Assembly (NCBI GenBank): GCA_041491005.1
Contig: JBGPUE010000010.1
Location: forward strand, 178 to 64,177
Reading direction: 5' to 3'
Length of the DNA stretch: 64,000 nucleotides
Source: Candidatus Binataceae bacterium
GTDB taxonomy: Bacteria; Desulfobacterota; Binatia; Binatales; Binataceae
Made by a program: the position numbers and the translations under genes
Shown here: piece after piece, positions 32,116-62,900 of the stretch
Position numbering within the stretch: the first letter of the stretch is position 1
How the letters are laid out: each line of letters starts with the position of its first letter
The notes under the pieces: model-generated
Seen by the model: the letters and a program-made list of their open reading frames with translations, nothing else
The model's database searches: none
Told to the model about the DNA's origin: nothing

Positions 32116-33054
32116 CTACGCGTGGACGATTAGATCGGCGAGCGATCGATCGCTATGCAGGCGGTCGATTGCGTCCGCGAGCAGTGGTGCGAGGCTGACG
32201 CGCTGGACCGGGACAACCGCCGGGTCGGGCCCCCTCACGCTGTCGGTATAAAATAGTCGCTTTATGGGTAGTCCGCGCAGGCGCTCGATGGCCGGCCCGA
32301 CGAACAACCCATGGGTGCATACCACCGTGATCTGCGGATCGCATCCCGCCGCGAGCAGGGCGTTGATTGCCGCTTCGATCGTCCCCGCCGTCGTGATCAT
32401 GTCGTCGACGATCAGCGGCGCGAGTCCGCGCACGTCGCCCACCACGCCCCGCGCTTCGACCCGCTCTCCGCTCAGACGGCGCTTGTAGACCACCGCGGTC
32501 GGCGCGTGAAGAGTCCGGGCGTAGCGCTCAGCGAGCTTTACGCCGCCAAGGTCGGGGCTGACGATAACGGTTCGTGACCCGGCTACGGCGCTGATCGCGG
32601 GCACCAGAATCGGCAATGCAGCGAGATGCTCCAGCGGAACGGGAAAGAAACCCTCCAGCGACGTCATATGAAGGTCGACGGCGACGATCCGGCTGACGCC
32701 GACAGTCGCAATCAGATCCGCCGCGATTCGCGCACCGACCGGGCCGCGGCCCGTCGCCCGTCGATCCTGGCGCGCATACCCGAAGTACGGGATGATCGCC
32801 GTCATCCTTTCTGCGCCTGCCCGCCGGCAGGCATCGGCGAGGAAGATTAACTCGAGCAGATGTTCGTCGACGGGCGGCCCCGTAGGCTGCACAAGATAGA
32901 CATCCTGCCCACGCACACTCTGCTCGAGCTCGATGTTGAGCTCGCTGTCGGGAAACCGGCCCACGATGCGCCCCCCCAGCGGGACGCCGAGTCGGTCGGC
33001 GATTGACTCTGCAAGCGGGAGGTTGGCCGATCCGGCAAGGATAGTCAGGTTCAT
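32116..33054 (-). CDS. prs: Ribose-phosphate pyrophosphokinase (PRPP synthetase)
   Basis: MNLTILAGSANLPLAESIA...DVYLVQPTGPPVDEHLLELIFLADACRRAGAERMTAIIPYFGYARQDRR; PRPP-binding loop DLGGVKL...VDDMITTAGT. The start is set at MNLTIL (SD GGAAGAG). Confidence 0.9.
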   Translation of the reverse strand: MNLTILAGSANLPLAESIADRLGVPLGGRIVGRFPDSELNIELEQSVRGQDVYLVQPTGPPVDEHLLELIFLADACRRAGAERMTAIIPYFGYARQDRRATGRGPVGARIAADLIATVGVSRIVAVDLHMTSLEGFFPVPLEHLAALPILVPAISAVAGSRTVIVSPDLGGVKLAERYARTLHAPTAVVYKRRLSGERVEARGVVGDVRGLAPLIVDDMITTAGTIEAAINALLAAGCDPQITVVCTHGLFVGPAIERLRGLPIKRLFYTDSVRGPDPAVVPVQRVSLAPLLADAIDRLHSDRSLADLIVHA

Positions 33055-33191: not shown

Positions 33192-33980
33192 CTATTTCGC
33201 CAACGCTTGGCCTTCTTTGGCGGCGCCCGTGCAGCGGAGGGCACACTTGTCGGGGACCGGCCAAAGGCCCGGCGCGTTCGGCTCTATGCGCTCGCCCAGT
33301 GCAATCAGAAAAGGACCTGAAAGTAGATAGCCGGTAGCGAAGAGAAATGCTGCGAGCTGGGGTAAGGCCACTAGAACGCTCAAGGTGACGATCATCGCGA
33401 TCATCGTTGGAAGCGATAGGCGCCGAAGGTTGAGTGATTTGAAGCTCGGATATGGAACGCGTGAAACCATCAGGCCCCCCAAAATCAATGTCAATCCAGC
33501 GATCACTGCACATAGTGTGCGGGGCGCGGTGATCTCGAAGTATTGGTATGCGAGCACGACGCCCGCGACCATTGCGGCGGCAGCGGGAACGGGCAGACCG
33601 ACGAAGCGGCTCTTGTCGACACTACCTGCCTGGATATTGAAGCGCGCGAGGCGCAGCGCCGCACACACGACATAGAGGCCGCAAATCGTCGCGCCCCATA
33701 CACCCAGTGGCTCGAGCGCCCAGGTATAGACGAGCACTGCGGGCGCCACGCCGAAGGCCGTTACATCGGAAAGGCTGTCAAATTCCACTCCAATGGCGCT
33801 GGTGGTGCGCAGGGCGCGAGCTATCGACCCATCGAGCCAGTCGAACACAACCGCGATTTCGGTCATGAGCGCGGCGCGTCCGTAATGACCATGAACGGCG
33901 AAGACCAGCGAGAAGAAACCAATCAAAAGTCCAAGCGAAGTAGTCGCTTCAGGTAGCAGCGCGCTCATAAGCGAGGTCAT
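33192..33980 (-). CDS. CDP-alcohol phosphatidyltransferase (phosphatidylserine-synthase-like)
   Basis: D-G-x2-A-R-x7-G-x3-D-x3-D motif (DWLDGSIARALRTTSAIGVEFDSLSD); multiple TM helices. Confidence 0.75.
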   Translation of the reverse strand: MTSLMSALLPEATTSLGLLIGFFSLVFAVHGHYGRAALMTEIAVVFDWLDGSIARALRTTSAIGVEFDSLSDVTAFGVAPAVLVYTWALEPLGVWGATICGLYVVCAALRLARFNIQAGSVDKSRFVGLPVPAAAAMVAGVVLAYQYFEITAPRTLCAVIAGLTLILGGLMVSRVPYPSFKSLNLRRLSLPTMIAMIVTLSVLVALPQLAAFLFATGYLLSGPFLIALGERIEPNAPGLWPVPDKCALRCTGAAKEGQALAK

Positions 33981-34110
33981 CTCGCTGCGCGCCTCCTGTC
34001 TGGGAGATGCAGGTCGCACGGCGTCCCTTTTACAACCGTCCACAGCCTGATTTCTCCGGTATCTCGAACGATTCCGGTGCGAGAAATCGCGTTTGCAAGG
34101 TTATCGCCGG

Positions 34111-34644
34111 CTAGTCAGCCAACGTGACGGTGCTGGCCTGCGGACCCTTCTCGCCCTCTTCTTCGGCGAAGCGGACATGACTGCCGACTTCGAGACGCTC
34201 GAAGCCGGGCGCCAGCACGCTGTTGCGATGGAAGTAGATCTCGCGACCGTCGGGCGTCTCGAGGAATCCGTAGCCGTCATCGCTGAAGAGCCTCGCGACG
34301 CGCGCCAAGGCCGGCCCTTCGTGGCTCTTAACCGCGCCGCGCACCTCGCGCACGTGGTCTTCAAGCCGCCGCCGGGCCGCGTCGAAGGCCTCGCGGATCG
34401 CCGTCATGAGTTCCTCGTCGGACTGATGGCTAATCGCGAGTTCGCCCCTCGGGACCTTCAGGTCGATTCGAATCTTGAACGGACCGCCCCGGCGGTGATG
34501 GCGCACCGGAGCTTCGACCGCGATGCGGCATCCGCTGATTTGGGGATCAAACTGTTCGAGCTTCGCAGCCCTGCGCCGAAGCTCAGCCTCTTCTGCCTCG
34601 GTCAACTGAAAGTTACGCGCTGTGATTTGAACCGGATATTCCAC
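34111..34644 (-). CDS. Ribosome hibernation factor (HPF/RaiA-like) N-terminal domain fused to a C-terminal cold-shock domain
   Basis: N-terminus MEYPVQITARNFQLTEAEEAELRRRAAKLEQF...FKIRIDLKVPRGELAISHQSDEELMTAIREAFDAARRRLEDH (HPF/YfiA fold pattern). C-terminus DDGYGFLETPDGREIYFHRNSVLAPGFERLEVGSHVRFAEEEGEKGPQASTV (CSD RNP-like GYGFL and FH motifs). Confidence 0.7.
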   Translation of the reverse strand: MEYPVQITARNFQLTEAEEAELRRRAAKLEQFDPQISGCRIAVEAPVRHHRRGGPFKIRIDLKVPRGELAISHQSDEELMTAIREAFDAARRRLEDHVREVRGAVKSHEGPALARVARLFSDDGYGFLETPDGREIYFHRNSVLAPGFERLEVGSHVRFAEEEGEKGPQASTVTLAD

Positions 34645-34877
34645 GTCGTTCCTCTCTTAGCCGAGCTTTCCGCAATCCCTGTGCCACCAGTCACGAACGC
34701 CAGCTTGGCCGAATCGGCGGCCGTTGTGTCACCAAGAGAGACACGCGTGACCCCGTTGGGCGCAAACTTTGAAGTGACGGGCGTGGCGGTTGGCGGCCGA
34801 CCCTTCTGACGCACGATCGGCGTTCACGGCGCACGTCTTGCAAGTTGGCCTGATCGGGCTAGGCTCGTCACAGATCG

Positions 34878-35300
34878 ATGCCCAGCGACGAATTCTACCG
34901 TGAGATCGAGCACACCGGGGATGCGGGTGTCGAGCTCGTCGCCACGTCGCGCGCTGAACTGTTCCGCAGGGCCGCGATCGCGATCGCGCGGCTGATGGTG
35001 GCGCCCGAGGGCGTCCGCCCGATCGAGCGGCGCGAGGTGCGGGTCAGTGCAGTGAGCGATGCCGACCTGATGCACGACCTGCTCGCGGCGTTGCTCAACT
35101 TGTTCCTGGTTGAAGGGTTCATTTGGTGCGATGCGGTGGTGAATGAAGACGGCGATTCAGTGCGCGCGGACGTAGTCGGCGAACGCTATGATCCCGCGCG
35201 CCACGAGCTGCGCACCGAGATCAAAGCCGTGACCTACCATCAGCTGTCGGTCGAGCGCGTGGGAGATCGCTGGCAGGCGCAGGTGATTTTCGACATCTAG
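34878..35300 (+). CDS. Archease (RtcB activator)
   Basis: YREIEHTGDAGVELVA signature; 140 aa; immediately upstream of rtcB. Confidence 0.85.
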   Translation: MPSDEFYREIEHTGDAGVELVATSRAELFRRAAIAIARLMVAPEGVRPIERREVRVSAVSDADLMHDLLAALLNLFLVEGFIWCDAVVNEDGDSVRADVVGERYDPARHELRTEIKAVTYHQLSVERVGDRWQAQVIFDI

Positions 35301-35359
35301 GCTGCCCCGCGCGCAATCGTGCGAAGCGCGGCCGTCGAACGCGTCGGCGGTATCCGGTT

Positions 35360-36796
35360 ATGGAACTCCAGAAGATCAGCGACTTTCTATGGGAAATCCC
35401 GCGCCATGGAGCGATGCGCGTGCCGGGGCGGATTTACGCCAGCCAGCAGATGATCGACGAACTCCGCGATGATCCAGCGCTGACGCAGGTCGCGAACGTC
35501 GCGTGCCTGCCCGGCATCGTCGGCTACTCGCTCGCGATGCCCGATATCCATTGGGGCTACGGATTTCCGATTGGCGGTGTTGCCGCGACCGATGCCGACG
35601 AAGGAGTGATTTCACCCGGCGGTGTCGGCTACGACATCAACTGCGGCGTGCGGCTGATCAAGACCAACCTCGAGTACACGGCCATCGCGGACAAAGTTGA
35701 TCGTCTGGCTGACGCGCTCTTCGATGCTGTGCCCGCGGGCGTTGGCTCCAGCGGCGCGATTCCCGGCCTCGCGACCGACGAGCTCAAACGTCTGCTCGGC
35801 TCCGGCGCCGTATGGGCGATGAACCACGGCTACGCTTCGATGGATGATCTCGAGCACACCGAAGAGAGCGGCCGGCTCGAGATGGCTGACCCATCGGCCG
35901 TCAGCGAGATGGCGCTCAGGCGCGGGCGCATCCAGCTCGGCACACTCGGCTCGGGCAATCACTTCCTCGAATGCGACCGTGTCGATCAGATCTACGACCC
36001 CGACATCGCGCGCGCCTTCGGCCTCGAGCTCGGCCAAGTGACTGTGATTATCCATTCAGGCTCGCGCGGACTGGGCCATCAGATCTGCGACGACCATTTG
36101 CGCGTGATCGGCAAGGCGATGAGCGGTTACGGGATCACTCTACCCGACCGCCAACTCGCCTCGGTGCCGATCCGCTCGCCGGAGGGTCGTGCCTACCTGG
36201 GCGCGATGGCGGCGGCGGCCAACTTCGCCTGGTGCAACCGGCAGATCATGATGCATCTGGCCGAGCGCGCCTTCATGGAGACGCTGGGCACAGGGCCGCG
36301 CGAAGTCGGCTTCTCGTTGCTGTACGACGTTTGCCATAACATCGCCAAGTTCGAGCGCCATGTGGTGGGCGGTGTCGAACGGCGCGTATGTGTGCATCGC
36401 AAAGGTGCAACGCGCGCCTTCGGCCCAGGCCATCCGGCGCTGCCCATCGCCTTTCGAATGATCGGGCAGCCAGTGCTGATCCCCGGTGACATGGGCCGCT
36501 ATTCGTATGTGCTGGTGGGACGCGAACGTGCGATGGCCGAGACCTTCGGTTCGACCTGTCACGGCGCTGGGCGCTTAATGAGCCGCGCCGAAGCCAAGCG
36601 CCGGGCGCGCGGCCGCGACCTACTGGCGGAATTGCGGGAGGCCGGCGTGACGATCAGGTACCAAGGCCGTTCGACAGTCGCGGAGGAAATGCCGGCCGCT
36701 TACAAGGATGTCGCAGACGTGGTCGGAGTGATGGAAGCGGCTGGCGTCAGCAAGCGAGTGGCGCGGCTCAAACCCTTCGCCGTAATAAAGGGTTGA
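35360..36796 (+). CDS. rtcB: RNA 3'-phosphate/2',3'-cyclic-phosphate RNA ligase RtcB
   Basis: DIHWGYGFPIGGVAA, GYDINCG, HSGSRGLGHQ, THNHAGR-like CHGAGR motifs; 478 aa. Confidence 0.9.
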   Translation: MELQKISDFLWEIPRHGAMRVPGRIYASQQMIDELRDDPALTQVANVACLPGIVGYSLAMPDIHWGYGFPIGGVAATDADEGVISPGGVGYDINCGVRLIKTNLEYTAIADKVDRLADALFDAVPAGVGSSGAIPGLATDELKRLLGSGAVWAMNHGYASMDDLEHTEESGRLEMADPSAVSEMALRRGRIQLGTLGSGNHFLECDRVDQIYDPDIARAFGLELGQVTVIIHSGSRGLGHQICDDHLRVIGKAMSGYGITLPDRQLASVPIRSPEGRAYLGAMAAAANFAWCNRQIMMHLAERAFMETLGTGPREVGFSLLYDVCHNIAKFERHVVGGVERRVCVHRKGATRAFGPGHPALPIAFRMIGQPVLIPGDMGRYSYVLVGRERAMAETFGSTCHGAGRLMSRAEAKRRARGRDLLAELREAGVTIRYQGRSTVAEEMPAAYKDVADVVGVMEAAGVSKRVARLKPFAVIKG

Positions 36797-37132
36797 TGCC
36801 GCGTCCATCGGCCTAGCCACCGCTATTGACGTTATTGAGTCCTACGAGTGTGTCAGGCGATGCGCCGAGCGCTCTGGATGCCGTAAGCGTCAGCCGCGTC
36901 GCCGCAGTGCGCGATTACGCGACGCGAATCTGCCTGATTGGCGCTGCTGCATCTAACGGAGTCATTGGTTCCCGGCTGACCCTCCTTACGAAAGCACCCA
37001 TCTCCGACATACTCTGTCTTTCGACATGGCGTTCCAATTCATAAGCAGCGATGGTGCGATTCGCTGGACTTAGACGCGAGCATCGGCGCATCCAGTTGAT
37101 TGTGCGGGGCTGAATACCTCCGCCTGTTTGTG

Positions 37133-37148
37133 CGGCAGGAGAATTGCT
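37133..37148 (+). promoter_or_regulatory. Weak sigma54-type (-24/-12) promoter candidate upstream of usp
   Basis: cGGCAGgagaaTTGCT: GG and GC are at the canonical 10-nt spacing but with 2 mismatches to TGGCAC-N5-TTGC. The resulting leader would be very short (~14 nt). Confidence 0.2.
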
Positions 37149-37172
37149 CAGGGCTCATGCAATAAGTCGGCG

Positions 37173-37583
37173 ATGAGACTGCTGTTCCGAAAGATTCTTT
37201 GTCCTATCGATTTCGACCGCATCGCGATCGGAGCAATCCAACTCGCGCGCGAGCTAGCCGGGCGAGACGGCGGCCTCGTCTACCTCTTGTGCGTCGTCCC
37301 CAAAGACCGGACTCGTCTGAAAGCCGACTTGGAGCAGGTCGCACACAACAGCTTGCGCGGGATTGGCCGCAAATGGTTCGAGGGAAAAGCGCCGTACGAG
37401 ATCCTCGTTCGCGCCGGCCGGCCAGCGCGGGCGGTGCTTGATGCGGCGGAGGAACTCGGCGTTGACGTCGTGGTGATGGCAACTCATGGGCGAACAGGAA
37501 CCAGGCGTGTGCGTCTGGGCAGCGTTACCGAGGAAGTGGTTCGGCAGTCGACACGACCGGTGGTGACAATCAGGCCAACGTAG
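37173..37583 (+). CDS. Universal stress protein (UspA family)
   Basis: MRLLFRKILCPIDFD... aligns with the second Usp (MSKLFNRILCPIAFE); C-terminal ATP-binding motif VVMATHGRTGTRRVRLGSVTEEVVRQSTRPVVTIRP. Confidence 0.8.
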   Translation: MRLLFRKILCPIDFDRIAIGAIQLARELAGRDGGLVYLLCVVPKDRTRLKADLEQVAHNSLRGIGRKWFEGKAPYEILVRAGRPARAVLDAAEELGVDVVVMATHGRTGTRRVRLGSVTEEVVRQSTRPVVTIRPT

Positions 37584-37637
37584 GGCTTGGCCTGCTTCGT
37601 CGATCTTAACGCGCCAAATCGAGGAGGACATCGCACA

Positions 37638-37838
37638 ATGAGCAGATACAATTGGGACGAAATCAACCGCACGGTTGAGGACTTAACCAAGCGTTACAAC
37701 ATCGCAGCGGTCGACAGCGTGACCGTCGGTGGAAATAGCGATGGAGTCGAGTTGACGCTCACCTCGCTGACCCCCGAGCAAGCCGAGCAGATCTTCAGGC
37801 TCATCGGGCTCAAGCAAGTCGAGCTCACAGTGCTCTGA
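37638..37838 (+). CDS. Small hypothetical protein (66 aa)
   Basis: Strong SD GAGGAGGA 7 nt before the ATG; protein-like composition (MSRYNWDEINRTVEDLTKRYNIAAVDSVTVGGNSDGVELTLTSLTPEQAEQIFRLIGLKQVELTVL). No recognised domain. Confidence 0.5.
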   Translation: MSRYNWDEINRTVEDLTKRYNIAAVDSVTVGGNSDGVELTLTSLTPEQAEQIFRLIGLKQVELTVL

Positions 37839-38109
37839 TCGCGCATCAAGCCGCCTCACTCTCTCGTTGACGGTCCGCAATGGTAGTCGTCGCGAAGAGC
37901 ACCCTTGTTCCGACGATACGGCGGAGTCGCGTAGATGCGGCGAGGCTGCTTCGTCCCCCGCTTCGATGCCGGGCCTCACGATGTTTGTGTGGAGCGATCC
38001 GGAGCGCGGCTGGCGCCTTTGGAAACACATCAGAGGGGGCTGGCTTACCGTGGTTCACTGTGGCCTACCCGGAAGCTGAGAATTCAGTGCAACGAATCCA
38101 GGAGTTCGA

Positions 38110-38125
38110 TGGCAAGTTTCTTGCG
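38110..38125 (+). promoter_or_regulatory. Sigma54-type (-24/-12) promoter upstream of hsp20
   Basis: TGGCAAG-tttc-TTGCG matches TGGCACG-N4-TTGCW at 13/15 positions with exact GG/GC spacing. The predicted TSS (~38136) leaves a 35-nt leader containing the SD AAAGGAGGAGAG. Confidence 0.45.
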
Positions 38126-38170
38126 ACACAGCATCATCGAACACCAACAATTTGAAAGGAGGAGAGATCA

Positions 38171-38623
38171 ATGGGAGCATTAACCCCATGGAGGCCGTTT
38201 CGCGAAATGGAGCGATGGGCGCGCAATCTGGAGGGCCGCTTTCCGCGAGTCTTTGAGGACTGGCCGTTTCGGGCCGAGGAAGCGGAGTTTCTGCCGCCGA
38301 TTGAGAGCTTCGTCCAGAACGGCAATATCGTCGTGCGCGCCGACGTTCCCGGACTGGAGGCCAAGGACATCGAGGTCAGCGTTTTGGGCAACGTGCTGAC
38401 GATCAAAGGCGAGCGCAGGGATCAGAAGGAAGTCAAGGCCGAGGATTACATCCGGCGCGAGATCTCCTACGGCTCCTTCGAGCGCAGGCTTACGCTGCCC
38501 GATGGCGCCGATGCCGACAAGGTCAAGGCGCAGTTCAAAAACGGGACGGTCGAGATCACGATGCCGATGGCCAAGGGCGCCAGCCCCAAGAAAGTGCTGG
38601 TGGAGAGCGCAGAGAAGAAGTAG
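38171..38623 (+). CDS. Hsp20/alpha-crystallin small heat-shock protein
   Basis: 150 aa; alpha-crystallin-domain pattern (...FLPPIESFVQNGNIVVRADVPGLEAKDIEVSVLGNVLTIKGER...FERRLTLPDGADADKVKAQFKNGTVEITMP). Confidence 0.9.
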   Translation: MGALTPWRPFREMERWARNLEGRFPRVFEDWPFRAEEAEFLPPIESFVQNGNIVVRADVPGLEAKDIEVSVLGNVLTIKGERRDQKEVKAEDYIRREISYGSFERRLTLPDGADADKVKAQFKNGTVEITMPMAKGASPKKVLVESAEKK

Positions 38624-38734
38624 TCAATCGGTCACAGGGGCAGGCGGCTACCACGCATCGCAGTTGTGCCTGCCTCCCCCGCGGCACTGGATTGTCGCAG
38701 CTCACGCGGCCTGACGCGAAAGGAGGAGATTCAG

Positions 38735-39337
38735 ATGCCAGCCGGGTCGACGATCTTGAATACCAATCACGAGCGGGTCGAGAAGCTCCGAACAGTGCTA
38801 GTCAGCCAACGCGACCATGCGTGGGCAAGGGTGCGGGAGTTCCGTCACGACCAGGAAGGCGACGCGATTCCGCCGCCGGCGGATGAGATGGACCTGGCGC
38901 GTTCGACCGCCGACCTCGAGACTCATGCGAGCCTGATCGAACAAGCGGAAGACCGGCTCGCACAAATCGACGACGCGCTGGCGCGGCTCAACGAAGGCCG
39001 CTATGGGATCTGCGCAAAATGCGTCGAGGAGATCGCGGTCGAGCGTCTCAACACGCTGCCCTTCGTGCTGTACTGCGTCGATTGCCAGCGCGAACTCAAC
39101 CGTGCGCGCCGCCGCGGCGAGGGCAGCCTGTCGCGCAGTTTCGGCCGCCGCTGGGAGACGCCGCTGGAGATGGATGAATCGCTGGAGAGGACCGACGCGA
39201 TGAGCCAGCCCGAGGAAGAAACCACCATACGCGAAGGCCGGCCTTTCGGCCGCGAAGAGGGCACTCCAGACCACGGCCGGATGCCGCGTACGGGCAGGGG
39301 CTTGGTTCGGCGCGGACGGCCCAAGCGCAGTGCGTAG
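38735..39337 (+). CDS. DksA/TraR-family C4 zinc-finger protein with a long disordered C-terminal tail
   Basis: Coiled-coil N-terminal region plus CAKCVEEIAVERLNTLPFVLYCVDC (C-x2-C-x17-C-x2-C). SD AAAGGAGGAG; 200 aa. Confidence 0.7.
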   Translation: MPAGSTILNTNHERVEKLRTVLVSQRDHAWARVREFRHDQEGDAIPPPADEMDLARSTADLETHASLIEQAEDRLAQIDDALARLNEGRYGICAKCVEEIAVERLNTLPFVLYCVDCQRELNRARRRGEGSLSRSFGRRWETPLEMDESLERTDAMSQPEEETTIREGRPFGREEGTPDHGRMPRTGRGLVRRGRPKRSA

Positions 39338-39355
39338 TCGCGCAGGGGATACCGG

Positions 39356-39802
39356 ATGAGCAAACTATTCAACCGGATTCTCTGCCCGATCGCGTTCGAG
39401 CACGAGTCGTTGAGCGCCCTCGATCTGGCCATAGCGATCGCGCAGCAGAACGACGCGACCCTCGTGCTGCTCAACGTCGCGCCGCTCCCAATCGGAGCCG
39501 GCGAATTCGCGCCGACGCTCGATCCGTATCCCGCGATCGAGCAAGTGGCGCGCGAACGGCTTGAGCGACTGGCCCACGATCGGCTTGAAGGCAAGGTCGC
39601 ATACAACACCCATGTCGTCGCGGGCGATCCGGCGACGCAGATCCTCCGTGCGATCGAGGCCTTCGCCGCCGATCTGGTCGTGATGGGGACGCATGGGCGC
39701 AAGGGCGTCAAACATCTGCTGTTGGGGAGCGTCGCGGAGAAGGTCGTGCGCGAGTCACCGCGGCCTGTGCTGACCGTGCGTCCCGCAGAGGAAGCGCGCT
39801 GA
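39356..39802 (+). CDS. Universal stress protein (UspA family)
   Basis: MSKLFNRILCPIAFEHESL...VVMGTHGRKGVKHLLLGSVAEKVVRESPRPVLTVRP. Confidence 0.85.
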   Translation: MSKLFNRILCPIAFEHESLSALDLAIAIAQQNDATLVLLNVAPLPIGAGEFAPTLDPYPAIEQVARERLERLAHDRLEGKVAYNTHVVAGDPATQILRAIEAFAADLVVMGTHGRKGVKHLLLGSVAEKVVRESPRPVLTVRPAEEAR

Positions 39803-39828
39803 CGGCTTGATACGCGGGAGGCAGACAC

Positions 39829-40479
39829 TTGCAGATAACTACCGACTCAGTTGAACTTGAGGGCGACCTCGAGATGCCGGCGGGCGTTGCGCGGGGAATC
39901 GTGATCTTCGCGCATGGGAGCGGAAGCAGCAGGCTCAGCCCGCGTAACATGTACGTGGCTGCCCGTTTGCGTGCGGCCGGAGTCGCCACATTGCTTTTCG
40001 ACCTGCTCACCGAGGCCGAGGCGCTGGATCGCCAAAACGTCTTCGATATGGAGCTGCTCGCCCGCCGCTTGCGGGCCGCTACCGCATCGGTGCGCCGCCA
40101 TCGGCTCGCCGGGATACTACCGGTCGGCTATTTCGGCGCCAGTACCGGCGCTGCTGCTGCACTAATCGCCGCAACGCGCGATCCAGCGATCACCGCGATC
40201 GTGTCGCGCGGTGGGCGACCCGACCTCGCGGGAGATGCGCTCGCTCAGGTGAAGGCGCCGACGCTGCTCATCGTCGGCGGCGAAGACCGCGAAGTGCTGG
40301 AGTTGAATCGGCGCGCGCTCAGGCGCCTGAGCTGCGAGAAAGAACTCCGGGTAGTTCCGGGTGCGACGCATCTGTTCGAGGAGCCGGGAACGCTCGACGA
40401 GGTAGTGAAGCTCGCCAGCGATTGGTTCGTGCGCCATCTGCACGCTCACCCGGGCGAAAAGGAGACCCATGTTCACTAA
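39829..40479 (+). CDS. Dienelactone-hydrolase-like alpha/beta hydrolase
   Basis: GIVIFAHGSGSSRLSPRN, nucleophile elbow GYFGASTGAAAAL, PTLLIVGGEDREV, ATHLFEEPGTL. Confidence 0.75.
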   Translation: MQITTDSVELEGDLEMPAGVARGIVIFAHGSGSSRLSPRNMYVAARLRAAGVATLLFDLLTEAEALDRQNVFDMELLARRLRAATASVRRHRLAGILPVGYFGASTGAAAALIAATRDPAITAIVSRGGRPDLAGDALAQVKAPTLLIVGGEDREVLELNRRALRRLSCEKELRVVPGATHLFEEPGTLDEVVKLASDWFVRHLHAHPGEKETHVH

Positions 40480-41173
40480 TCGCCAGGATGCGGGACGCCG
40501 GCTCGCCAAGGCTCTCGCCCGCTACAAGGATGACCATCCCGTCGTGCTGGCACTGCCGCGCGGTGGAGTTCCGGTCGGTTTCGAGGTAGCCAAGGCGCTG
40601 AGCGCGCCGCTGGACATTATCGTCGTGCGCAAGCTGGGCGCTCCCGGACAACACGAGCTGGGGATCGGCGCGGTCGTCGACGGCGACCATCCGCAGACCG
40701 TGCTCAATGAGGAACTGCTGCGAAGGATCGATGTGCCCAAGAGTTACCTCGAAGCAGAGATCCTGCGCGAGCTTGAGGAGATCCACCGCCGCCAGCAGAC
40801 CTACCGCAAGGGGCATCCACCGGTCGATCCAGCCGGGCGGATTGTAATCGTCGTCGATGATGGGATCGCGACTGGCGCCTCGATACGCGCGGCGTTGCGC
40901 GGTCTGCGAAAGCTCGCTCCCCGCCGTCTGGTGCTCGCCGTGCCGGTCGCACCCGCCGAGACGATCGAGTCGCTCAGAGCCGAGGTCGACGAGGTGGTTT
41001 GTCTTGCGACCCCGCCCGATTTCTTCGCTATCGGACAGTACTATGACGATTTCAGGCAGACTTCTGACGCGCAGGTAGTCGAGCTGCTCGACAAGGCGCG
41101 CAATCGTGTGCTGGCGCCCTCGCCGCCAGCGGCACGCTCTCCATCAGAAGAGAGCAAAGCGCCCTCCTGCTAG
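40469..41173 (+). CDS. Predicted phosphoribosyltransferase (type I PRTase fold)
   Basis: PRPP-binding motif IVIVVDDGIATGASIRAAL; N-terminus MFTNRQDAGRRLAKAL. Confidence 0.75.
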   Translation: MFTNRQDAGRRLAKALARYKDDHPVVLALPRGGVPVGFEVAKALSAPLDIIVVRKLGAPGQHELGIGAVVDGDHPQTVLNEELLRRIDVPKSYLEAEILRELEEIHRRQQTYRKGHPPVDPAGRIVIVVDDGIATGASIRAALRGLRKLAPRRLVLAVPVAPAETIESLRAEVDEVVCLATPPDFFAIGQYYDDFRQTSDAQVVELLDKARNRVLAPSPPAARSPSEESKAPSC

Positions 41174-41235
41174 TCGAGTTGCGTATCGTCATTATTGTAG
41201 TTTCAGGCCGTCGCTCTATCTGTGATCCTTAGCTT

Positions 41236-42183
41236 GTGCGCTGGGAATCGCGGGCAAAGGCAGCCCTGGCACTAGCCCGATGGACTGGCGGGCTGGTCTT
41301 GTGCGTTCTGTTACTCGTCGCCGAAGCCGCCGCTGACGAACTACCGCCGCTTGGCACGGCGCTGGTTGGGGGCGAGTTCTCCTACGTCGTGCGGCGTAGC
41401 GACTCGCTGCGAAGCATCGGCTCGCGCTATGGCGTGGAGCCCACGGCGCTGGCGGCGGTCAACGGGTTTGCCGCCTCGGCGCGCCTGCGCGTCGGACGGA
41501 CGCTTCGGATCGACAACCGCCACGTCGTGCCGCGCGCAGTCGCACGCGGAATATTGATCAACATTCCTCAGCGCTACCTGTTCCTGTTCCGCGGCGGCAA
41601 AGCGGATGTTGCCTGCCCGGTGGGGCTCGGCAGGCCATCGTGGCGCACTGTCACCGGGAAGTTTACCGTCATCGGCAAACGGACCGATCCGGTATGGACC
41701 GTGCCGGAATCGATACAACGCGAGATGAAGCGCGAGGGCAAAGAAGTCCGCAGCTGCGTGCCGCCGGGCCCCGGCAACCCGTTGGGCAGTTACGCCCTCG
41801 ACTTGAGCATCGCCAGCTACCTGATTCACGGTACGATCGCGCCGTCGAGCATCTACGCATTCCAGACCCACGGATGTATCAGGCTCCATCCCGACGACAT
41901 CGCGGCGCTGTTTGGCCGCGTTGAAGTCGGCGAGCCGGGCGAGATCATTTACCAGCCCGTGTTGCTCGCGCGCCTGGACAACGGGCGCATTTTTCTGGAG
42001 GTCAACCGCGATATCTACCGCAAGGCGGGCGACGCGATGTTGCTGGTAAGGGCGTGGGCGGAGACCTCCGGTCTTGACGGCGAAATTGATTGGCGGCAGG
42101 CAACGGCTGTCATCGAACGAAGGGAGGGAGTGGCGCGCGAGGTCGATCGAGCGGGCGGGCGGCTGTCTTTGTGGCGACATTGA
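41236..42183 (+). CDS. L,D-transpeptidase with an N-terminal LysM domain
   Basis: LysM YVVRRSDSLRSIGSRYGVEPTALAAVNG; YkuD catalytic motif HGTIAPSSIYAFQTHGCIRL. Confidence 0.8.
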   Translation: MRWESRAKAALALARWTGGLVLCVLLLVAEAAADELPPLGTALVGGEFSYVVRRSDSLRSIGSRYGVEPTALAAVNGFAASARLRVGRTLRIDNRHVVPRAVARGILINIPQRYLFLFRGGKADVACPVGLGRPSWRTVTGKFTVIGKRTDPVWTVPESIQREMKREGKEVRSCVPPGPGNPLGSYALDLSIASYLIHGTIAPSSIYAFQTHGCIRLHPDDIAALFGRVEVGEPGEIIYQPVLLARLDNGRIFLEVNRDIYRKAGDAMLLVRAWAETSGLDGEIDWRQATAVIERREGVAREVDRAGGRLSLWRH

Positions 42184-42241
42184 TTGGCAACCCGTGGCGG
42201 CTATCATGGATCGCATCGATGAGGTTCTTACGGGTCGGTCG

Positions 42242-42850
42242 ATGAATCGCAAGAACAGGCCTCCATCCGAGCAGCGGGCCGCGGCTGAACTGAATGAGCC
42301 GCGCGTCATGCTGACCCGCCGCGGTTTCATGCGGGTCGCCACCGTAGCGGCCGCAACCGCGTTGATCCCGCATCGGGCGCTGGCCGGGCTGCGGCTGCCG
42401 GTCGCCCCGGCACGCTCTCTCGCGCTGCACAATCTCCATACCGGTGAATCGTTCCGTGCGGTCTACTGGACGGCGGGTGGCTACATCCGCGAAGCCGTGG
42501 AGAATATCAACTTCATTCTACGCGACTTTCGCACCGGCGAGATCAAGCCGATTAACCCGGGTTTGCTCGACCTGATGCACGCGATCGCGGGCCGCCTCGA
42601 TACCCGCGAACCCTTCCTCATCATCTCGGGCTACCGCTCGGCCGCGACCAATGCGATGCTGCGCGCGCACGGCGAAGGTGTGTCGCCGCGAAGCCTCCAT
42701 ATGAAGGGGATGGCCGCCGACATCCGCTTGCCGGGCCGGGAGCTCTCGGCGCTGCACAATGCGGCGCTCGCGCTGCACCGGGGCGGCGTCGGCTTCTATC
42801 CAAAGTCGGACTTCGTACATATCGACGTCGGCCGAGTGCGCTGGTGGTAG
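42242..42850 (+). CDS. Tat-secreted DUF882/peptidase-M15A-like (YcbK-type) Zn-dependent cell-wall hydrolase
   Basis: Twin-arginine signal MLTRRGFMRVATVAAATALIPHRALA; DUF882 motif HMKGMAADIRLPG...DFVHIDVGRVRWW. The start is either 42242 or 42307. Confidence 0.7.
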   Translation: MNRKNRPPSEQRAAAELNEPRVMLTRRGFMRVATVAAATALIPHRALAGLRLPVAPARSLALHNLHTGESFRAVYWTAGGYIREAVENINFILRDFRTGEIKPINPGLLDLMHAIAGRLDTREPFLIISGYRSAATNAMLRAHGEGVSPRSLHMKGMAADIRLPGRELSALHNAALALHRGGVGFYPKSDFVHIDVGRVRWW

Positions 42851-42886: not shown

Positions 42887-43384
42887 ATGTCGGCGGCGGC
42901 GAAAACATTCATGAAGCCTGACCGCAACTGGGATCGTACGGCGATTCTTGCGATTGCCTCGCGGCAAAGCGCAAAGCCGGGCGCGCTGATGCTGGTCCTG
43001 CGGGAGATTCAGGACCGCTTCGGTTTCATCCCTCCTGACTGCGTGCCGACAATCGCCCAGGCGCTCAACCTGTCGCGAGCAGAAGTCCACGGCGTCATCA
43101 GCTTCTACCATGACTTCCGCGCCAAGCCCGCAGGCAGACACCTCTTGCGCGTCTGCCGCGCGGAATCGTGCCAGGCGATGGGCGCAGTCGAGCTGCTCTC
43201 TCACATCAAGAAGCGCACGGGAATCGGCCTCGGCGAGACGAGCGAAGATGGCACGTTTACGCTCGAGCCCGTCTATTGTCTTGGCAACTGTGCCTGCTCG
43301 CCGGCAATCGTGATCGATGGCGAGCTTCATGGCCGCGTTACAGCCGACGCCTTCGATCATTTGATCGCGGGTCTCAGGGAATAG
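42887..43384 (+). CDS. fdsG: NAD-dependent formate dehydrogenase gamma subunit / NuoE-like 2Fe-2S thioredoxin-fold subunit
   Basis: LLRVCRAESCQAMGAVELLSHIKK...PVYCLGNCACSPAIVIDGELHG (four Cys of the NuoE-type 2Fe-2S site). Confidence 0.75.
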   Translation: MSAAAKTFMKPDRNWDRTAILAIASRQSAKPGALMLVLREIQDRFGFIPPDCVPTIAQALNLSRAEVHGVISFYHDFRAKPAGRHLLRVCRAESCQAMGAVELLSHIKKRTGIGLGETSEDGTFTLEPVYCLGNCACSPAIVIDGELHGRVTADAFDHLIAGLRE

Positions 43385-43386
43385 CA

Positions 43387-44988
43387 GTGGCGCTGTCCGT
43401 CTATGTCCCTTGTGATTCGGGCGCCCGCTCTTTGGGGGCGGACACGGTTGCACGCACTATCCGCGAGGAGGCATCACGCCGTGGCGTTGCGCTCGAAGTC
43501 GTGCGCACGGGCTCGCGCGGACTTTATTTTGCCGAACCCCTGGTCGAGGTCGCGACCGCGGCTGGCTGCGTCGCGTATGGGCCGGTATCGGCCGCTGACG
43601 TTGCATCGCTATTCGAAAGTGATTTCCTCGCGGGCGGCGAGCATCGTCTCCGGCTCGGCCTAGCCGACGATATCCCTTATCTCAGATCCCAACAGCGGCT
43701 CACGTTCGCACGCGCCGGAATTGTCGATCCGGCCTCTCTCGATGATTACTTGGCGCATGGCGGTTACAGCGCGCTCCGAATGGCTCTGGAAAGGACGCAG
43801 TCCGCCGTTATCGATGAGATTGCAGCGTCGGGGTTGAGGGGCCGCGGCGGCGCCGGATTCCCCACCGGCATCAAATGGCGAACCGTTCTCGAGACCGCTG
43901 CGGATACGAAATACGTTGTATGCAACGGCGACGAGGGCGACTCGGGCACTTTTTCGGATCGCATGATCATGGAGGGCGATCCGTTTGCGCTACTCGAAGG
44001 CATGACGATCGCGGCATTCGCCGTCGGCGCGACGCAGGGCTTCATCTATGTCCGCTCCGAATACCCGGATTCATATCGCCAGCTTGGCCAGACACTACAG
44101 ACCGCTCGCAAACACGGCTGCTTGGGCGACAAGATCCTTGGTTCGAGCCTGCGCTTCGACGTCGAACTCAGGCTCGGCGCCGGCGCTTACATCTGCGGCG
44201 AGGAGACCGCGATGCTCGAAAGCATTGAAGGCAAGCGCGGGATGGTGCGCGCAAAGCCGCCGGTGCCGGCAATCAGCGGGCTCTTCGCCAAGCCGACGGT
44301 GGTCAACAATGTCATCACGTTTGCGTCTGTCCCGGTTATCATTGCGAATGGAGCGCAGTCTTATCACCAGCGCGGCACGGGCCGCTCGCGGGGGACCTTG
44401 CCCTTTCAGCTCGCCGGCAACGTCAAGCGCCCGGGGTTGGTTGAACTGCCGTTCGGCGTCACCATCCGCGAACTCGTCTTCGACTACGGGGGTGGCACCG
44501 CAAGCGGCCGTCCAGTTGGAGCCGTGCAAGTCGGTGGCCCACTGGGTGCGTACTTCCCGCTCAAGATGTTCGACACGCCGCTGGATTACGAGGCGATGGA
44601 CGCGGCCGGGGGAATCCTCGGCCACGGTGGCATCGTAGTCTTCGACGACTCGGTAGATATGGCGCGAATGGCGCGATACGCGATGGAATTTTGTGCGCTG
44701 GAGTCATGCGGGAAGTGCACGCCATGCCGGATCGGCTCGGTGCGCGGGACGGAGGTGATCGATCGCATCGTGAACCGCCACAATCCGCGCGCGAACCTCG
44801 AGTTGCTGCGCGACCTCTGCGATACGATGATGCACGGCTCGCTGTGCGGTCTGGGCGGCCTCACTCCGCTTCCAGTGATGAGCGCGCTCAGATACTTTCC
44901 TGAGGACTTCGGCCTCGAGCCCGCTAACATCGAGGAAGTCTGGCCGAACCCCACACGACAGGCGGACGACGATGCTGTCAAAGGCTGA
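43387..44988 (+). CDS. fdsB: NAD-dependent formate dehydrogenase beta subunit / NuoF-like (NAD, FMN, 4Fe-4S)
   Basis: GRGGAGFPTGIKW (NADH/FMN site), CGKCTPCRIG (4Fe-4S). GTG start right after the fdsG stop; the listed ORF's upstream extension overlaps fdsG in another frame. Confidence 0.85.
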   Translation: MALSVYVPCDSGARSLGADTVARTIREEASRRGVALEVVRTGSRGLYFAEPLVEVATAAGCVAYGPVSAADVASLFESDFLAGGEHRLRLGLADDIPYLRSQQRLTFARAGIVDPASLDDYLAHGGYSALRMALERTQSAVIDEIAASGLRGRGGAGFPTGIKWRTVLETAADTKYVVCNGDEGDSGTFSDRMIMEGDPFALLEGMTIAAFAVGATQGFIYVRSEYPDSYRQLGQTLQTARKHGCLGDKILGSSLRFDVELRLGAGAYICGEETAMLESIEGKRGMVRAKPPVPAISGLFAKPTVVNNVITFASVPVIIANGAQSYHQRGTGRSRGTLPFQLAGNVKRPGLVELPFGVTIRELVFDYGGGTASGRPVGAVQVGGPLGAYFPLKMFDTPLDYEAMDAAGGILGHGGIVVFDDSVDMARMARYAMEFCALESCGKCTPCRIGSVRGTEVIDRIVNRHNPRANLELLRDLCDTMMHGSLCGLGGLTPLPVMSALRYFPEDFGLEPANIEEVWPNPTRQADDDAVKG

Positions 44989-55830: not shown

Positions 55831-57162
55831 TCATTCGATTCCATAGCGTCTGCGTTTGCGCCAGAGCGTGGTGGCGTTGATTCCGAGCGTTGCGGCGGCC
55901 TCATCAAGTGTCGCGCTCTCGGCCAGCACTCGCGCGATATGTTCTCGTTCGACGTCTTCGAGACTCGCGGCAGGCGAGGTGGTGCCCGGCGCCTGCGGTA
56001 TATCGCGGAAGATCGAATCGGGCAGATCGTCGGGCCCGATGGTATCGCTGCGGCTTAGCACCGCGGCGCGCTCAAGAGCGTTACGCAACTCGCGCACGTT
56101 TCCCGGCCATTGATAGCGGGCCAGGGCCGCGCCGGCCTGCGGCGCGAGCCGGAGCTGCGGACGGTGGTTGCGAATCGCCGCCGCACGCAGCATCCACTCC
56201 GCCAGCGCCGGGATGTCCTCGCGGCGCTCGCACAGCGGCGGCACGCGGAGCGTAATCACGTTGAGCCGGTAGAACAGATCTTCGCGGAAGCGGCGCGCCT
56301 TGACCTCGTCTTCCAGATCGCGATTGGACGCGGCGATGATTCGCGCGTCGACCCGGATCGTGCGTTCTCCGCCCACGCGTTCGAAGCTCTGTTCCTGGAC
56401 GAAGCGTAGAAATTTGGTCTGCAGTGCGGCCGAGAGGTCGGCGATCTCGTCGAGAAATACCGTGCCGCCGTCGGCCGCCTCCAGGCGGCCGGGCTTGTCC
56501 TTGATGGCGCCGGTGAATGAACCGCGCATATGGCCGAAGAGCTCGCTTTCGAGCAGCTGCTCCGAGAGCGTCGTGCAGTTGACCACGACGAACGGGCGCT
56601 CGCATCGCGGACTCCATCTGTGAATCTGGCGGGCGAGGACGTTCTTGCCGGTGCCGCTCTCGCCGCTGAGCAGGATCGTCGCCTCGCTGCGCGCAGCCTG
56701 CCGCGCGGTTTCCAGCATGCGAACCATTGCGGCGCTGCGCGATTCCAGCATCGGCATCTCGTCGATAGTCTCGCGTAGCACCTGGTTCTCCGCCTGCAGG
56801 CTGTGCATCTGCAGCGCGCGATCGACCACATGGCGTATCTGGTCGAGCGAGAAAGGCTTGGCAATATAGTCGGAGGCGCCGGCCTTCATCGCGGCCACTG
56901 CGTTCTCGACGGTCGCGTAAGCCGTCATCAGGATCACCGGCGTGTAGGGATGCAGCCGCTTCGCCTCGTTGAGCAGCTCGAGTCCGTTCATCTCCGCCAT
57001 CCGGAAGTCGGTCAAAACCAGATCCAGCGGTCCTGCGGCGAGCGTCTGTATCGCCGCGACGCCGCTGGCGGCTTCGCGCACCTCGTGTCCGAGCGACTGG
57101 AAGAACGCCGCGAGGCTGCGGCGAATGTTCTTCTCGTCGTCGACGATGAGCAGTCGCGCCAT
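55831..57162 (-). CDS. Sigma54-dependent (NtrC-family) two-component response regulator
   Basis: Receiver MARLLIVDDEKNIRRSL...DLVLTDFRM; AAA+ sigma54-interaction domain GESGTGKNVLARQIH, GSFTGA (GAFTGA variant), ERVGG; C-terminal Fis-type HTH. The start ATG overlaps the kinase stop (ATGA). Confidence 0.9.
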   Translation of the reverse strand: MARLLIVDDEKNIRRSLAAFFQSLGHEVREAASGVAAIQTLAAGPLDLVLTDFRMAEMNGLELLNEAKRLHPYTPVILMTAYATVENAVAAMKAGASDYIAKPFSLDQIRHVVDRALQMHSLQAENQVLRETIDEMPMLESRSAAMVRMLETARQAARSEATILLSGESGTGKNVLARQIHRWSPRCERPFVVVNCTTLSEQLLESELFGHMRGSFTGAIKDKPGRLEAADGGTVFLDEIADLSAALQTKFLRFVQEQSFERVGGERTIRVDARIIAASNRDLEDEVKARRFREDLFYRLNVITLRVPPLCERREDIPALAEWMLRAAAIRNHRPQLRLAPQAGAALARYQWPGNVRELRNALERAAVLSRSDTIGPDDLPDSIFRDIPQAPGTTSPAASLEDVEREHIARVLAESATLDEAAATLGINATTLWRKRRRYGIE

Positions 57163-60163: not shown

Positions 60164-60238
60164 TTGCGCGGCTGCCCTGTCGATCCGGTCTCGGCAGGGA
60201 TCCCTTCCTATTATCCATCTAAGGTCAGCTCGATAGTA

Positions 60239-60844
60239 TCATCTCTCGTTGCGAACTTGCCGAGTGCGGTCCGGGGACAATGCGTCGAGGGCGAGGTTCA
60301 GGCGCAAAACATTCACCCCGGGCTCGCCGAAGATTTCGGCCCATCGCCGACTTGTATTCACCCTGACTAGCCGGCGTACCGCGTCTTCGGCCAAGCCTCT
60401 GGTCTTTGCGACGCGGGCGACCTGGATATCCGCGGCGGCCGGGCTGATCTCGGGATCCAATCCACTACCCGACGCAGTGACCAGATCGATCGGTACCTGT
60501 GCCGGCCGCACGCCCTCGGTTTCGACCACCGCCTTGAGCCGCGTCTGGACGGCGTCGATCAGCGTCTTGCTGGTTGGGCCGAGGTTCGAGCCGCCCGAAC
60601 TCAATCCATCGTAGCCCTTCGCCCCAGCCGTTGAGGGCCGCCCGTGAAAGTTGCGCGCACTTGAGAAGTTCTGTCCGATAAGTGACGACCCGACCAGCTT
60701 GCCGTTCACATATACGAGGCTGCCATTGGCCTGTAGCGGGAAGAGCAACTGGGCCACCGCCCAGACTGCCAGCGGGTAGATGACGCCCGTTAGCAACGTC
60801 ATCACCACGGTAAGCCGGGTTGCGATCCACAGTGAACGCATCAT
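60239..60844 (-). CDS. kdpC: Potassium-transporting ATPase subunit C
   Basis: TRLTVVMTLLTGVIYPLAVWAVAQLLFPLQANGSL (KdpC signature N-terminus). Confidence 0.9.
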   Translation of the reverse strand: MMRSLWIATRLTVVMTLLTGVIYPLAVWAVAQLLFPLQANGSLVYVNGKLVGSSLIGQNFSSARNFHGRPSTAGAKGYDGLSSGGSNLGPTSKTLIDAVQTRLKAVVETEGVRPAQVPIDLVTASGSGLDPEISPAAADIQVARVAKTRGLAEDAVRRLVRVNTSRRWAEIFGEPGVNVLRLNLALDALSPDRTRQVRNER

Positions 60845-60851
60845 CTGTACC

Positions 60852-62894: not shown

Positions 62895-62900
62895 GACTTC

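Follow-up and report, generated by a model that had tools for sequence, protein, structure and literature searches.

We examined a 64,000-nt stretch of DNA (the window) from a Candidatus Binataceae bacterium (assembly GCA_041491005.1, contig JBGPUE010000010.1, positions 178 to 64,177), and in particular a 7-kb block within it (34111-41173) where genes for a ribosome hibernation factor, the RNA ligase RtcB and its activator archease, two universal stress proteins (Usp1 and Usp2), the small heat-shock protein Hsp20, a DksA/TraR-type factor, a hydrolase and a phosphoribosyltransferase stand together (Table 1). All of these families had been named in an initial annotation and are present at or near where it placed them, each confirmed by Pfam. 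The gene calls are identical on a 106-kb JGI soil-metagenome contig and in an NCBI metagenome-assembled genome (MAG), both with an identical DksA-like protein. The block had been described as co-directional; this is true of 34878-41173 only, the gene for the fusion of hibernation factor and cold-shock domain (HPF-CSD) lying on the minus strand, divergent from archease. A 66-aa open reading frame (ORF) at 37638-37838 had been omitted. The explanation that we favour, and consider fairly probable, is that the block is a chromosomal Binatia neighbourhood for stress response and ribosome preservation, with about four sigma-54-dependent promoters that would be co-activated by an enhancer-binding ATPase encoded outside the window.

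Archease and RtcB are adjacent on the same strand, 59 nt apart. The genes after Hsp20 are closely packed, with 111 nt to the DksA-like gene, then gaps of 18 and 26 nt, and finally an 11-nt overlap between the genes for the dienelactone-hydrolase-type protein (DLH) and the phosphoribosyltransferase (PRT). The 66-aa ORF is called on every same-species contig; Pfam and NCBIfam searches with it gave no match, and tblastn over 160 related loci gave no homologue. A 66-aa ORF at a related locus (L092) was considered as its counterpart and rejected, as the two sequences are without similarity.

The window was searched for TGGCAC-N5-TTGC and then scanned with weights for sigma-54-type promoters. The HPF-CSD promoter is the sole perfect match to this core in the 64 kb and the top score in the weighted scan. 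Four of the eight sites at the chosen score fall 24-45 nt before start codons in the right orientation, all of them in the 7-kb block; about 3.6% would be expected at such positions, giving this placement a binomial P of about 1e-4. A scan of 33900-41400 for sigma-70 promoters found one site, in the small-ORF region, and none before the stress genes. The same interval holds a single terminator-like site, between RtcB and the Usp1 promoter.

Table 1. Genes, predicted promoters and other sites of the block and its surroundings, in window coordinates (GC3, GC content of third codon positions; PRPP, phosphoribosyl pyrophosphate).
Feature	Position	Strand	Evidence or remark
PRPP synthetase	32116-33054	-	Pfam Pribosyltran_N + Pribosyl_synth
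HPF-CSD fusion, 177 aa	34111-34644	-	Pfam Ribosomal_S30AE (residues 5-99) + CSD (residues 120-175)
Predicted sigma-54 promoter of HPF-CSD, TGGCACAGGGATTGCG	34671-34686	-	26 nt before GTG start
Degenerate palindrome, TGTCTCTCTTGGTGACA	34727-34743	-	40 nt upstream of HPF-CSD -24 element
Candidate sigma-54 promoter of archease-RtcB, CGGCGCACGTCTTGCA	34827-34842	+	35 nt before ATG
Archease (RtcB activator), 140 aa	34878-35300	+	Pfam Archease, E 9e-37, full length
RtcB 3'-phosphate/5'-OH RNA ligase, 478 aa	35360-36796	+	Pfam RtcB, E 4e-174
Terminator-like hairpin with T-rich tail	37104-37123	+	Between RtcB and Usp1 promoter
Candidate sigma-54 promoter of Usp1, CGGCAGGAGAATTGCT	37133-37148	+	24 nt before ATG
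Universal stress protein 1 (Usp1), 136 aa	37173-37583	+	Pfam Usp, E 7e-24; also called on JGI contig
66-aa ORF, no family assigned	37638-37838	+	Strong Shine-Dalgarno, coding-like GC3 (0.71)
Candidate enhancer site, TGGCGCCTTTGGAAACA	38011-38027	+	82 nt upstream of Hsp20 -24 element
Predicted sigma-54 promoter of Hsp20 operon, TGGCAAGTTTCTTGCG	38110-38125	+	45 nt before ATG; one mismatch
Small heat-shock protein Hsp20 / alpha-crystallin, 150 aa	38171-38623	+	Pfam HSP20, E 1e-23
DksA/TraR-type RNA-polymerase-binding factor (DksA-like), 200 aa	38735-39337	+	Pfam zf-dksA_traR; NCBIfam DksA_like E 5e-18
Universal stress protein 2 (Usp2), 148 aa	39356-39802	+	Pfam Usp, E 3e-32
Dienelactone-hydrolase-type alpha/beta hydrolase (DLH), 216 aa	39829-40479	+	Pfam DLH 26.8 bits (cut-off 21) + Hydrolase_4
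TT1426-type phosphoribosyltransferase (PRT), 234 aa	40469-41173	+	Pfam Pribosyltran, E 2e-17
LysM-YkuD L,D-transpeptidase + DUF882/M15 peptidase	41299-42850	+	Pfam
NtrC-type sigma-54 activator (response regulator), kdp cluster	55831-57486	-	Only GAFTGA/ELFGH-type protein in window

A search for a motif shared by the regions upstream of Usp1 (37173), Hsp20 (38171) and the DksA-like gene (38735) had been suggested; the first two have a -24/-12 site, but there is none directly in front of the third, which is most likely transcribed from the Hsp20 promoter. Hsp20, DksA-like, Usp2, DLH and PRT most likely form one operon, because the downstream gaps are short, Hsp20 and the DksA-like gene have the same strong ribosome-binding site (GAAAGGAGGAGA, the only exact k-mer found in common when the four intergenic regions were compared), and the DksA-like gene lacks a site of its own. 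A hairpin between Hsp20 and the DksA-like gene was tried as an internal terminator and rejected, being no stabler than shuffled sequence (z = -0.38), which further supports a single unit. About four transcription units are predicted in all (HPF-CSD; archease-RtcB; Usp1 with the 66-aa ORF; Hsp20 through PRT), and a single locus-wide unit is unlikely given about four promoters. An Rfam scan of the whole window gave no match; the long intergenic stretches thus show neither a ROSE-type thermometer nor a riboswitch.

Related loci were collected in two sets, one of 80 Binatia loci (L008-L087) anchored on the DksA-like family, and the other anchored on HPF-CSD and comprising individual contexts from Entotheonellia and other MAGs together with 80 metagenome loci. 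Promoter-like sites recur in both. Hsp20 orthologues in L009, L017, L019 and L020 have TGGCGCG-N4-TTGC 56-59 nt upstream, and -24/-12 sites also precede DLH(-PRT) in L009, L016 and L018, HPF-CSD in L033 and Usp genes in L087, L065 and L075; RtcB of L019 is preceded by a comparable site, AGGCACAGCTTTTGCA. Among DksA-like genes, 54 of 83 have a site within 260 nt, compared with 3.9% of random positions, a count that overstates independence since many of the loci are orthologous. HPF-CSD genes of the metagenome loci have a strong site within 220 nt upstream in 28 of 73 cases (background 3.8%), and in the Entotheonellia and other MAGs such sites precede the first genes of HPF-CSD operons. Sigma-54 control, as the initial annotation had proposed, is thus supported both by promoter placement in the window and by conservation in other genomes. 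Two further sequence features were noted near these promoters. In the Candidatus Binatus subgroup an invariant AGGCACGATCAATGCT lies ~90 nt upstream of the DksA-like gene. In L019 (~5938-5990) the -12 element of the promoter of HPF-CSD is directly followed by four tandem copies of a 13-nt unit, CTGGATCATTGCT, every one of which duplicates the -12 sequence.

The gene neighborhood is likewise conserved, in a loose and shuffled form. HPF-CSD, Hsp20, PRPP synthetase, the DksA-like gene, DLH-PRT and Usp remain together in L008, L009 and L016-L020 with their order shuffled, which favors selection on proximity over the simple descent of a single operon. PRPP synthetase adjoins the DksA-like, Hsp20 and HPF-CSD genes in five Binatia loci (L009, L016-L019), and is also found beside HPF-CSD in metagenome loci and near DLH-PRT on a Sphingobium replicon; it is probably an outlying member in the window too, so that the conserved region would extend left as far as this gene. 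The best relatives of the DksA-like gene are all from Candidatus Binatia or Binataceae genomes, by which the organism belongs to the phylum Binatota, and the family has 546 relatives in species-representative genomes, with up to three copies per MAG.

Around HPF-CSD the same families return in other combinations: nicotinate phosphoribosyltransferase (NAPRTase), Hsp20, BON, Usp, HPF-CSD, CBS, CBS, hydrolase and Usp in L088; RtcA, CBS, Hsp20, Usp and HPF-CSD in L092; Usp, class II ribonucleotide reductase, CBS and HPF-CSD in both L093 and L095; and RtcA, CBS, a DksA-type protein, DUF2267, PGA_cap, HPF-CSD and BON in L094. The commonest Pfam families among the two neighbors on each side of metagenome HPF-CSD genes are Usp, CBS, Pribosyltran, Hsp20, BON and DUF2267. 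In the 26 metagenome loci of at least 6 kb, partner families occur within 8 kb of HPF-CSD as follows: at least one in 16, at least two in 12 and at least three in 9. The clustering of these families exceeds chance. RNA-repair genes are among the recurrent neighbors, with RtcB in six and archease in four of the 80 metagenome loci and RtcA in four HPF-CSD loci (L092, L094, L118, L137). One locus, L158, repeats the window layout, with archease-RtcB divergent from HPF-CSD.

Aligning the regions upstream of Hsp20 revealed a conserved block, TTGGCGC(T/C)TTTGG(C/A)AACA, ~40-80 nt before the -24 element, and from it the pattern TGGCGC-N3-TGG-N2-ACA was derived, whose 6-N5-6 layout we take to resemble that of NtrC-type sites. 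The pattern occurs about 40-105 nt upstream of many of these promoters. The candidate site before Hsp20 in the window (38011-38027) aligns with TTGGCGCTTTTGGCAACA upstream of the orthologous Hsp20 genes. The degenerate palindrome between HPF-CSD and archease has two mismatches to the pattern, TGGCGCNNNTGGNNACA, and is a possible, if weak, candidate for an enhancer site shared by the two divergent promoters. Elsewhere the pattern lies upstream of HPF-CSD promoters (L009, L017, L019), of the DUF2267 gene of L075, and of DksA-like promoters (L033, L034, L036, L037, L073, L084), where a second, inverted copy serves the divergent CBS gene. Allowing at most one mismatch, the loci and window together contain 33 copies, compared with 10.4 +/- 2.2 in shuffles. 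A sigma-54 site follows 14 of the copies at a distance of 25-125 nt, compared with 0.2 in shuffles; with the pattern derived from some of the counted sites and many loci orthologous, these amount to about six independent promoter groups.

The NtrC-type activator in the window implies that the organism uses sigma-54; this protein is unlikely to regulate the stress block. It belongs to a kdp potassium-pump cluster (55831-63851, minus strand) with KdpA (cut by the window end), KdpB, KdpC and a split KdpD, whose N-domain is joined with a Usp domain in a 405-aa protein of its own; a HAMP-PAS histidine kinase comes next. The activator replaces the usual KdpE, which suggests that kdp may also be under sigma-54 control in this organism.

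Activators are seldom close to the DksA-like family, with any such gene within 10 kb in two of the 80 DksA-anchored loci. At L075 a 527-aa activator (11928-13511, minus strand) lies directly upstream of a motif and promoter pair, and Usp, DksA-like, Hsp20 and DUF2267 genes cluster next to this activator. Sequence comparison of this protein with the PDB matches the AAA+ part only. Its N-domain belongs to a small family found in Binatia only and scores 23.7 bits with Pfam Protoglobin, just under the 25-bit cut-off. The AlphaFold model has a predicted local distance difference test score (pLDDT) above 95 over residues 50-190, and its best Foldseek matches are the globin-coupled sensors AfGcHK, HemAT and BpeGReg, with a weak E of 9e-3 and target TM-scores of 0.65-0.73. 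The N-domain is accordingly modeled with a globin-like fold. Haem binding is doubtful, because there is no histidine in the predicted F helix. Homologues of the activator lie beside Hsp20 and a DksA-like gene in L098 and beside narGHJI in L096. On this sequence and context, a globin-fold activator as the switch of the gene set is a lead rather than a result.

All parts of the block can be assigned to known families, among them the recently described HPFcold. Residues 1-174 of HPF-CSD match Coxiella HPFcold (PDB 9T0Z/9TZE, E=3e-40), the RNP-like motifs GYGFL and IYFH show no variation across the family alignment, and 5592 cluster representatives have the same S30AE and CSD architecture; by these matches the protein is placed in the HPFcold class of ribosome hibernation factors. 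In the study that named the class, the N-domain occupies the 30S decoding center, the anti-Shine-Dalgarno 3' end of 16S rRNA winds around the cold-shock domain, and RNase protection in 70S hibernation was proposed (PMC13392368). By homology to 9T0Z, the window protein would bind the same two parts of the ribosome. RtcB has as its closest solved structures Thermus thermophilus TTHA1785 and Pyrococcus horikoshii RtcB (E about 1e-167), which marks it as the archaeal/Thermus type, the kind that uses archease. Archease activates RtcB (PMC3973293), and in E. coli the 3' fragment that MazF cuts off 16S rRNA is joined again by RtcB (PMC5416887). The back-to-back placement of HPF-CSD and archease-RtcB suggests a ribosome-preservation pair, since a shield of the 16S 3' end adjoins a ligase able to restore that end.

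In the family alignment of the DksA-like protein, the zinc-finger residues C93, C96, C114 and C117 (a C4 finger), together with D50 and D53, do not vary, and A55 is almost invariant. The protein has a DxxDxA coiled-coil tip motif and a conserved 55-residue C-terminal tail, acidic then basic, and its closest solved structures are the DksA-like 2KQ9 and 4IJJ. Usp2 carries the G-x2-G-x9-GS nucleotide-binding motif, read from its translation. PRT matches T. thermophilus TT1426 (PDB 1WD5, E 4e-45). In Binatia, and likewise on proteobacterial replicons, DLH and PRT are kept together as a unit. In L009, L016 and L018 the hydrolase and PRT read as one ORF of 444-485 aa, where the window has two overlapping genes; the single ORF would resemble Mycobacterium tuberculosis Rv0571c, which we take to consist of a phosphoribosyltransferase and a hydrolase.

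Together these functions suggest how the block might work. Upon a growth-arrest signal the activator would bind the TGGCGC-N3-TGG-N2-ACA-type sites ~40-100 bp upstream of the promoters and open sigma-54 complexes. HPFcold would then plug the 30S decoding center, with its cold-shock domain covering the anti-Shine-Dalgarno 3' end of 16S rRNA, while archease-activated RtcB would reseal tRNA and rRNA cut by stress ribonucleases, the 16S 3' end included. Hsp20 would hold unfolding proteins, the DksA-like factor would enter the RNA polymerase secondary channel and retune transcription, and the Usp proteins and DLH-PRT pair, with the nearby PRPP synthetase, may adjust nucleotide metabolism.

The DosR regulon of M. 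tuberculosis includes Rv0079 (RafH, the HPF-type ribosome-associated factor in hypoxia), Rv2631 (RtcB), Rv2031c (alpha-crystallin), six Usp proteins, the putative phosphoribosyltransferase Rv0571c, the B12-dependent ribonucleotide reductase Rv0570, Rv0573c (nicotinamide recycling), Rv2626c and Rv0574c (PMC5309233). The initial annotation had likened the block to this regulon and counted RtcB and the hibernation factor as additions to the likeness. The parallel stands and is closer than that, for both belong to it: the window has Hsp20, two Usp, RtcB, an HPF-type factor and a phosphoribosyltransferase (likened to Rv0571c by description), and related loci add NAPRTase, class II ribonucleotide reductase, CBS-pair, PGA_cap, erythromycin esterase and pfkB genes. 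In contrast to DosR, the block has archease and a DksA-like factor, its hibernation factor is of the HPFcold type (a cold-shock fusion) and not the RafH type, its promoters are of the sigma-54 type, and its genes lie within 7 kb as opposed to nine blocks. That the block has no DosR-like regulator, as had been stated, agrees with Pfam, which found neither a REC-GerE protein nor a GAF kinase (DosR/DosS/DosT) among the window ORFs that were scanned; the Dev-box palindrome (GGGACT-N2-AGTCCC core, at most two mismatches) occurs 0 times in the window, where 2.2 would be expected by chance. By this analogy, the block would be functionally the same toolkit as the mycobacterial dormancy regulon, placed under a different regulator, and by analogy only, hypoxia or dormancy might be the inducing condition.

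A similar effector set can be seen under yet another regulator. A search of plasmids found no near-identical match to the block and none covering more than 17% of it; the DLH-PRT pair alone matches, with 65% DNA identity on the Sphingobium replicon AP027340, where its companions include PRPP synthetase, erythromycin esterase, pfkB and CBS-pair proteins. Directly upstream on this replicon are a PAS-PAS histidine kinase and a response regulator with REC and GerE domains, the regulator type of DosR and FixJ, whereas in Binatia these effector genes have sigma-54-type promoters. After the kinase and regulator the Sphingobium locus (L179, AP027340 214314-229176) continues with CBS, erythromycin esterase, hydrolase, phosphoribosyltransferase, pfkB, CBS, PRPP synthetase and thymidine phosphorylase. 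Here a cultured alphaproteobacterium seems to have the same effector set under control of the DosR type, and it could serve as an experimental model.

Other known systems resemble parts of the block. The window HPF-CSD has the two-domain architecture, length and cold-shock RNP-like motifs of HPFcold from Coxiella burnetii (CBU_0020), and differs in having a perfect sigma-54 promoter and in standing back-to-back with archease-RtcB. The HPFcold paper (PMC13392368) has no discussion of regulation or gene neighborhood, and the term RpoN is absent from it. The adjacent co-directional archease-RtcB pair is like the operons of archaea and Thermus (PMC3973293). With the RtcR-RtcBA system of E. coli the block has in common the RtcB ligase and, in the window, an upstream sigma-54-type promoter, whereas no RtcA cyclase (RTC domain) or RtcR (CARF and AAA+) is found in the window. 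The DksA-like protein is typical of the DksA/TraR family in its C4 zinc finger, DxxDxA tip and structure matches, but has the 55-residue tail, and its many Binatia paralogues mostly have sigma-54-type promoters.

An alternative is that sigma-54 co-regulation is real but serves proteotoxic or general stress (heat, envelope, starvation), the likeness to DosR arising from stress regulons that draw on the same families. Hsp20, Usp, CBS and BON are indeed generic stress families, E. coli ibpB, pspA and rtcBA are sigma-54-dependent, nothing in the window senses oxygen, and the globin-fold activator of the relative is without the F-helix histidine. This would leave the extent of the overlap with DosR to be accounted for, as it reaches to RtcB, an HPF-type factor and an unusual phosphoribosyltransferase and hydrolase, and in related loci to NAPRTase, class II ribonucleotide reductase, a CBS-pair protein, erythromycin esterase, PGA_cap and pfkB; moreover one activator homologue adjoins narGHJI. 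We regard general stress as a possible explanation, though not a likely one. Distinctly doubtful, at the other end, is the most ambitious extension, in which Binatia and some other soil phyla would have a sigma-54 counterpart of the DosR dormancy regulon, switched by a globin-fold enhancer-binding protein sensing oxygen or redox state, with HPFcold and archease-RtcB as a dedicated pair to shield the anti-Shine-Dalgarno 3' end of 16S rRNA and rejoin it once cut, and a sigma-54-induced DksA-like paralogue shutting down growth transcription.

Several points weigh against the stress and ribosome-preservation neighborhood that we favor. The weighted promoter scan used ad hoc consensus weights and not a trained model. 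The eight sites at this score compare with 8.8 +/- 2.7 predicted for the window by a Markov model, and the looser -24/-12 pattern occurs 57 times against 63 expected, so site totals are at chance level. Compared with the 10-base core, two positions differ in the archease site and two in the Usp1 site, and the archease promoter was uncorroborated in the metagenome loci, with a site at one of four archease and none of five RtcB genes. Only Hsp20 has a clean copy of the enhancer pattern in the window, and no copy was found for the Usp1 promoter. The window holds no cognate activator for the block, its sole activator being the one in the kdp cluster, and rpoN was not seen within it. The full gene set is kept only in the closest few (roughly 6) of the 80 DksA-anchored loci. 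Finally, the explanation is built on the sequence of an uncultured organism.

The chance-level totals, the imperfection of two of the four sites and the shuffling of gene order among relatives would suit an alternative in which the genes are neighbors without common control, each with its own sigma-70 or extracytoplasmic function (ECF) promoter, and the -24/-12 strings are accidents of GC-rich DNA. Against this, site placement is non-random, the sites persist in the non-coding DNA of different species, their frequency upstream of HPF-CSD and DksA-like genes is about ten times the background, and the intergenic regions are without sigma-70-like promoters, which together make this alternative very unlikely.

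Hardly credible is that the block, which the initial annotation had called an island, is horizontally acquired DNA, or a defense or counter-defense locus with RtcB mending RNA after cleavage by phage-triggered nucleases: RtcB does repair nuclease-cut tRNA, PADLOC found weak similarities of the cold-shock domain to CSD_V (E 3e-7) and of PRT to ShosT (E 8e-5), and the DLH-PRT pair occurs on large proteobacterial replicons, but PADLOC gives no complete defense system, GC content (0.62-0.66) is near that of the flanks with composition even throughout, neither an integrase nor a tRNA nor a repeat boundary is present, plasmids give no match beyond that noted above, and the same families cluster on the chromosomes of many Binatia.

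Some neighboring genes of the window deserve mention. The LysM-YkuD and DUF882/M15 pair follows PRT on the same strand and is also found near a DksA-like gene in L036, and an NAD-linked formate dehydrogenase operon (42887-47758, plus strand) begins 37 nt past the peptidase gene. The pair could be a downstream extension of the block, and the pair and the formate dehydrogenase operon could belong to the same stress program. At 8578-17442 on the minus strand a single 2954-aa ORF combines the supersandwich and catalytic domains of GH94 with a glucoamylase-like domain and appears to encode a cyclic beta-1,2-glucan synthase.

In the literature that we searched, we found no relevant report of the combined gene set with DosR, nor of a globin-coupled sigma-54 activator. 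Sigma-54 control of this effector set was not found described there, nor were the frequent sigma-54 dependence of HPFcold and of Binatia DksA-like paralogues or the repeated association of HPFcold with genes for Rtc RNA repair. HPFcold genes appear frequently to carry sigma-54-type promoters, and their recurrent position beside RtcB, archease or RtcA suggests joint protection and repair of the 16S rRNA 3' end.

Binatota are abundant in soil and have never been grown, and how such slow growers enter and leave inactivity is largely obscure. With four predicted promoters, a predicted enhancer site and defined effector genes, the locus is a compact, testable candidate for such a program. Its effector set looks like a module that has been placed under different regulators, namely DosR in actinobacteria, in Sphingobium a PAS kinase together with a REC-GerE regulator, and in the window, as predicted, sigma-54; this recurrence in distant phyla under interchangeable regulators argues for an ancient functional module and not a mycobacterial speciality.

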